DNA from: Candidatus Uhrbacteria bacterium
GTDB taxonomy: Bacteria > Patescibacteriota > Patescibacteriia > 2-12-FULL-60-25
Reading direction: 5' to 3'
DNA: 28,697 bases
NCBI GenBank assembly: GCA_016866635.1
Contig: VGLT01000001.1
Location: 1 to 28,697, forward strand
The translations under genes were made by a program, and so were the position numbers. The notes beneath the pieces are model-generated. The model had not been told where the DNA came from and did not search any database. It worked only from the letters and a program-made list of their open reading frames with translations. Of this stretch, positions 14,677 through 14,876 are shown piece after piece; the stretch's first letter is position 1, and each line of letters opens with the position of its first letter.

Positions 14677-14876
14677 GTTGTCCCTCGTGACTTGCGAGGG
14701 GGCGGTACGTGTCCTGGCTTTTTTCGAAAGCGGTGCCTCGCGGAACTCACGATCTCGTGAGTGAAGTGGGGTAAACTCTCTCCTCCCGCTGTCGCAATGA
14801 GCTATCTTTAAACATGTGGCCACCCTTCGCAGGTCAAGTGGGAGAAATAAAAAATCACCGATGGGGTGATTTTTTA
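14677..14876 (+). ncRNA. Putative ~200-nt stand-alone structured RNA
   Basis: Promoter, stems with G-U pairs on the + strand, and terminal hairpin 14849-59/14865-75 ending in a U-tract. Confidence 0.55.

Follow-up and report, generated by a model that had tools for sequence, protein, structure and literature searches.

Positions 14677 to 14876 of the window (the whole stretch of 28 697 nt of contig VGLT01000001.1 analysed here) hold what sequence comparison identifies as a genuine gene with a promoter of its own. It is predicted to be transcribed into a rod-shaped small RNA of ultra-small Patescibacteria that belongs to no catalogued family. The rod exposes a CU-rich patch, and since this patch exactly complements GA-rich leader motifs nearby, the RNA probably controls the neighbouring variable genes through base pairing. 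The host genome measures 0.83 Mb (94 % complete), and the gene order in the window is recA, ftsK, a rodZ-like HTH gene, the rod RNA gene, an island of orphan genes, rpsO, a NYN gene and pnp. The features of the RNA gene and of the leader facing it are listed below.

Features of the rod RNA gene and of the neighbouring orphan leader (positions in the window)
Feature	Positions	Strand	Remarks
Sigma-70-type promoter	14642–14670	+	−35 TTGACG, 17 nt, −10 TATTGT; predicted start near 14677
Small RNA body	14678–14846	+	Single long irregular rod
P2–P3 helices, 5′ strand	14688–14712	+	Family consensus CUGCGAAGCG-nn-GCACG; pairs with 14812–14836
Apical hairpin	14734–14773	+	Length and sequence vary among homologues
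One-sided unpaired CU-rich bulge	14774–14785	+	Near-invariant seed CUCUCUCCUC at 14776–14785
Bidirectional intrinsic terminator	14848–14876	both	12 bp stem 14848–14859/14865–14876, A-tract and U-tract
Orphan ORF, 235 aa	15036–15743	−	Convergent with the rod RNA gene; candidate regulated gene
Second four-way-junction leader module	15818–15989	−	5′ motif GGAGGAGGA, imperfect seed match
First four-way-junction leader module	16016–16180	−	5′ motif GGAGGAGAGA (16168–16159), exact seed complement; candidate target
Leader promoter	16281–16309	−	TTGACG-17-TATAGT, extended −10

The initial annotation described a free-standing structured RNA equipped with a dedicated promoter and terminator. This reading is well supported: the locus is conserved, its pairs covary and its orientation with respect to rodZ has flipped. 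The annotation overlooked the CU-rich bulge, part of which it had placed in stems, and likewise the complement of that bulge 1.3 kb away. The promoter it named is borne out, recurring upstream of 59 of the 70 rod homologues as against 1.1 % of random 60-mers. The terminal hairpin with its U-tract is present too, although its stem is 12 bp rather than 11 bp long and it should be able to act on both strands, since an A-tract precedes the hairpin and a U-tract follows it; U-runs at 57 of 70 homologues are only a weak test for a terminator. The sequence of the rod locus is identical in an independent assembly. A synteny search, which the annotation had suggested, placed homologues beside rodZ or ftsK: the RNA gene is convergent with rodZ at 45 loci and tandem with it at two, the window locus included, and other families have it upstream of ftsK. 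Its own promoter, the orientation flips and the site upstream of ftsK argue that the rod is an independent gene rather than a trailer of rodZ. We note that the window gene (14677–14876), tandem to rodZ and not facing it, is inverted with respect to its closest relatives (L011–L014), and that a second inversion is seen in L021. It is very improbable that the locus is not an RNA gene at all but a terminator region, a repeat remnant or the back of an antisense gene of 103 aa. A gene caller does mark the antisense ORF (14575–14886), but no relative of its product occurs at any homologous locus, in keeping with the original view that the segment has no credible ORF, and the covariation, the kept promoter, the single copy in 98 genomes and the orientation flips all speak against such a reading.

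Positions 14678 to 14846 pair end to end in one rod of about 170 nt, with a folding energy of −96 kcal/mol including the terminator and a z-score of −8.65, a value reached by none of 200 shuffled sequences. The minus strand folds less well (−68.5 kcal/mol) and the same strand bias is present in 54 of 70 homologues, in agreement with the plus-strand preference seen at the outset. The stem set proposed at that time is wrong, however: all six stems can be paired on paper, but the fold built from local stems reaches only −55 kcal/mol against the −96 kcal/mol of the rod, and five of them have a mean pair probability of 0.0 and pair in 44–53 % of cells in 69 homologues. The remaining stem (14745–14751/14756–14762) does form, with a probability of 0.99; it lies in the variable tip and is paired in 40 % in the homologues. 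The order of elements along the rod is a variable outer helix, P2–P3, a small internal loop rich in U, one variable and then one short helix, the apical hairpin and the 3′-side seed, with the seed placed between two hairpins in some distant members. P2–P3 is conserved in sequence, not merely in pairing, and includes a conserved bulged G at 14818 within its pairing region; these helices with their bulged G may offer a surface for protein binding. The seed is the best-conserved single-stranded part of the rod, with a probability of being unpaired of 0.87, against 0.31 across the whole RNA, and an opening cost of nil.

Homologues were found first by DNA search and synteny, and two covariance models were then built in turn. 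The second model detects a single copy in 98 of the 127 Ca. Uhrbacteria family genomes (85 of the 106 of high quality), second matches within genomes being the reverse strand of the same rod. Ten further matches, two of them weak, lie in other families among 149 class genomes, and another class contributes two. With the covariance model no rod was found in genera g6, g13, g21 and g26, a closed genome included, nor in most of the class. An exact pattern run over 401 class genomes gave six matches and missed the window genome itself, and was thus too strict; matches from metagenomes were selected on the seed and hence are no test of its invariance. Every member folds as a rod, with lengths from 108 to 179 nt (median 148). 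In a 70-sequence alignment fitted to the structure, 84 % of cells pair and 47 of 51 pairs show double changes, with a covariation score of 0.58 compared with 0.11–0.13 for slid registers, and when a plain MAFFT alignment is used, 14 of the 21 outer pairs still show double changes. The covariation called for by the initial annotation is thus strong for the rod, although five of its stems are not conserved. The shortest member, 108 nt long (L105:127–234), has apparently lost the apical part together with the seed, and two genomes of genus g24 (L235 and L236) lack the rod but retain, within the first 1 kb, a short CUGCA..UGCAG terminator hairpin near the rod's place, possibly a remnant.

The rod is a member of no Rfam family, none of which, 6S RNA included, matches it at gathering or E-value thresholds beyond terminator-type chance matches. 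This bears out the earlier statement that it is not SRP RNA, RNase P RNA, tRNA or tmRNA: RNase P RNA and tmRNA are both located on other contigs, and neither ARAGORN nor a family model gives a match at the rod locus. The SRP RNA model (RF00169) has no match in the genome (94 % complete), in which no Ffh/FtsY DTAGR motif was found in six frames; Hfq and Rho were not found in the genome either, and RNase III is present. [quoted passage not shown] A divergent relative could bind sigma-70 RNA polymerase and use the CU bulge, in an inverted or permuted geometry, as the template for a short purine-rich product; the size and rod shape, the one copy, the separate promoter and the conserved helix sequence some 25–40 bp from the bulge would all suit such a role. 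The absence of RF00013 matches from 151 class genomes suggests that the 6S role is vacant in the class and makes a polymerase-binding role for the rod merely unlikely. Nevertheless, we consider a 6S-like RNA quite improbable. RF00013 matched neither the window, nor any of 31 homologous loci even at E≤10, nor the rest of the window's own genome, and a search for circularly permuted 6S RNA, in which E. coli ssrS was compared by profile and by two-strand matrix, was negative (p 0.14). Where 6S RNA carries a large central bulge in its 5′ strand, the rod has small central loops, the shorter side of its largest two-sided loop counting at most 5 nt in 65 of 70 homologues, and its long unpaired segment lies towards the tip in the 3′ strand. 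It also lacks visible zapA/ygfA/rarA synteny, is somewhat short (median 148 nt as against a 6S range of 160–200 nt) and has a patchy distribution, with no copy found in a closed family genome or in most of the class, and a 6S-like function would leave the linked complement unexplained.

This complement lies in a leader of 530 nt that runs from its promoter to the orphan ORF and contains two tandem modules. A model of the module finds one to four copies in 103 of 127 family genomes, chiefly between rodZ and rpsO, and having no Rfam match it too represents an uncatalogued family. The orphan protein matches no Pfam family, and Atlas leads are below threshold. The rod was absent from the phage collections searched, where matches to the module pattern are due to chance. 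A terminator-like hairpin (16185–16205, minus strand) lies directly upstream of the first module, whose closing helix absorbs its U-tract.

Outside the family the linkage of seed and complement recurs. The 10-mer GAGGAGAGAG is found eight times in 35.7 kb of upstream DNA, always on the rod's strand and 0.1–4 kb away (within the 5 kb searched), and never on the opposite strand, ranking first of 210 permuted 10-mers (mean 0.21); the count covers nine loci of other families and another class, six of which have the word, representing about four independent lineages. These perfect 10-mers lie at the 5′ ends of leaders, mostly distant from start codons. At two loci of one family (L293 and L294) the motif is placed between a promoter and a terminator with CUCUCC in its loop, and stepwise folding of L293 yields alternative leader folds in which the motif pairs with this loop, to 94 % just before the terminator is complete. 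Six genomes of genus g24 with a variant rod have a module that matches it over 15–18 nt, better than any foreign rod does, although as a single clade they represent one event, and GAGGAGAG is found in modules of none of ten genomes from three rod-less genera. In the window, predicted binding amounts to −12.6 kcal/mol for the nascent module and to −4.7 kcal/mol once the module is finished, according to an opening-energy calculation that replaced cofolding of rod and module, which cannot represent pairing with an enclosed bulge.

There is also evidence against pairing. About half of the sampled rod-bearing genera have no GAGGAGAG module and a mostly intact seed, modules are still present in genera without a rod, and the motif is retained in two g24 genomes that lack the rod; the association of rod and motif at genus level, with three rod-less genera, is not significant. 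GGAGG lies in an internal helix of the module with compensatory changes of its own, and this helix of the finished module partly explains its conservation. With the motif blocked, no terminator appeared or disappeared in 42 family modules, and access to the orphan's Shine–Dalgarno sequence (SD) was unaltered. The motif is not enriched in intergenic DNA genome-wide, and the module matches in the rest of the class do not fall together with those of the rod. Other targets were rejected: an AGGAGAG before ftsK in the window genome is not conserved, which removes the ftsK/rodZ mRNA, and no exact complement stood out in 16S rRNA, RNase P RNA or the dksA-linked RNA (22261–22840).

On balance we lean towards the rod being a trans-acting, Hfq-independent RNA that captures the leaders of the neighbouring variable island as they are made. 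It would act as a stable scaffold that keeps the CU-rich seed permanently unpaired, and the seed would pair during transcription with the GA-rich 5′ motif of structured island leaders, before this motif meets its own internal CU-rich partner. We infer that such pairing takes place in vivo and that the altered leader fold lowers expression of the downstream orphan genes. In the terminator-bearing leaders of another family of the class, a blocked motif would leave no antiterminator and transcription would stop; in the window genome the first module is the predicted target, and processing, pausing and translation are candidate outcomes. More tentatively, and at rather less than even chances, rod and leaders may constitute an undescribed two-part RNA system of Patescibacteria, in which the invariant CU seed gates the tandem leaders of a hypervariable, SD-led island without Hfq or Rho and the two partners co-evolve.

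Because the seed also matches SD-like sites in the island, translational repression of the RsaE kind is the main rival to leader capture. The rod might be a general anti-SD RNA whose seed blocks the GA-rich ribosome-binding sites of SD-led accessory genes, the core genes being mostly SD-less and the modules bystanders. Good pairing with the 16S tail is seen for only about 11 % of called starts, rodZ, ftsK, recA and rpsO have no conserved SD, and many island ORFs carry AGGAG or GGAGG, the orphan site AGGAGAGA (15754–15747) being a perfect 8 nt match to the seed; AGGAGA also occurs at 32 of 148 island sites in rod-bearing genomes compared with 5 of 47 in rod-less genomes, although this trend is weak, start calls are crude and the kin are not independent. 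We nevertheless think this unlikely, as the seed fits GAGGAGAGAG and not the canonical AGGAGGUG, and the perfect 10-mers at leader 5′ ends are mostly far from start codons. It is less probable again that the rod is a decoy or scaffold for a protein (S1, a KH protein or a nuclease, for example) that recognizes both the pyrimidine bulge and the conserved helix carrying the bulged G, the GA motifs being conserved for separate structural reasons. The sequence conservation of P2–P3, the intact seed in genera whose modules have drifted and the presence of PNPase and a NYN-domain gene within 6 kb would be in accord with this, but no candidate protein was identified, and protein binding fails to account for the g24 match or for eight exact complements all lying on one strand.

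The leader-capture reading has partial parallels among known regulators. In plasmid pT181 the regulatory RNA is short, is transcribed opposite to its target and complements it in full. In attenuation of the pT181 type a separate small RNA binds the nascent leader and blocks the antiterminator, so that the terminator forms (PMC3753616), and the L293/L294 layout fits such an antisense-controlled attenuator, predicted in one family. The rod differs in being chromosomal and 140–180 nt long, at a separate locus kilobases away, with a bulge seed of 10 nt (up to 18 nt) and several leaders, and in the window genome no terminator switch was found. RsaE/RoxS and RNAIII carry UCCC in the loops of hairpins and act by blocking ribosome-binding sites (PMC3861533); the rod shares with them an accessible, unpaired C-rich seed complementary to G-rich SD-like sites, but it has no Rfam homology, and its seed bulges from one side of a long rod and matches the 5′ ends of leaders best. 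The literature searched contained no paper describing the rod RNA family, nor one on small regulatory RNAs of these ultra-small bacteria. The small-RNA family is real and uncatalogued, and comes with a specific, testable hypothesis as to its partner. In a host genome that shows no Hfq, Rho, SRP or recognizable 6S RNA, the rod and its linked predicted target would provide an RNA-level switch over the most variable genes, and a natural trans-acting attenuator with a 10 nt seed could be tested in E. coli or in vitro, with no need to grow the organism itself.

Several minor observations concern the leader, the island and the host genome. The leader (15818–16274, minus strand) has a closing helix GUGGAGG/CCUCUAC, a hairpin CCG-AACA-CGG and a middle arm with a GGUUUCGAC loop; the word CCGAACACGG is also present in the host's 5S rRNA, possibly by chance. 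Contig C94 of genome G000 carries, besides the copy on C41, a second and quite different 16S rRNA 3′ end, and is probably a contaminating contig. More orphan ORFs with strong GA-rich ribosome-binding sites lie at 16940–17917 and 26649–27098, whereas rpsO (16607–16867) is a core gene without an SD, unlike the GA-led orphan ORFs.
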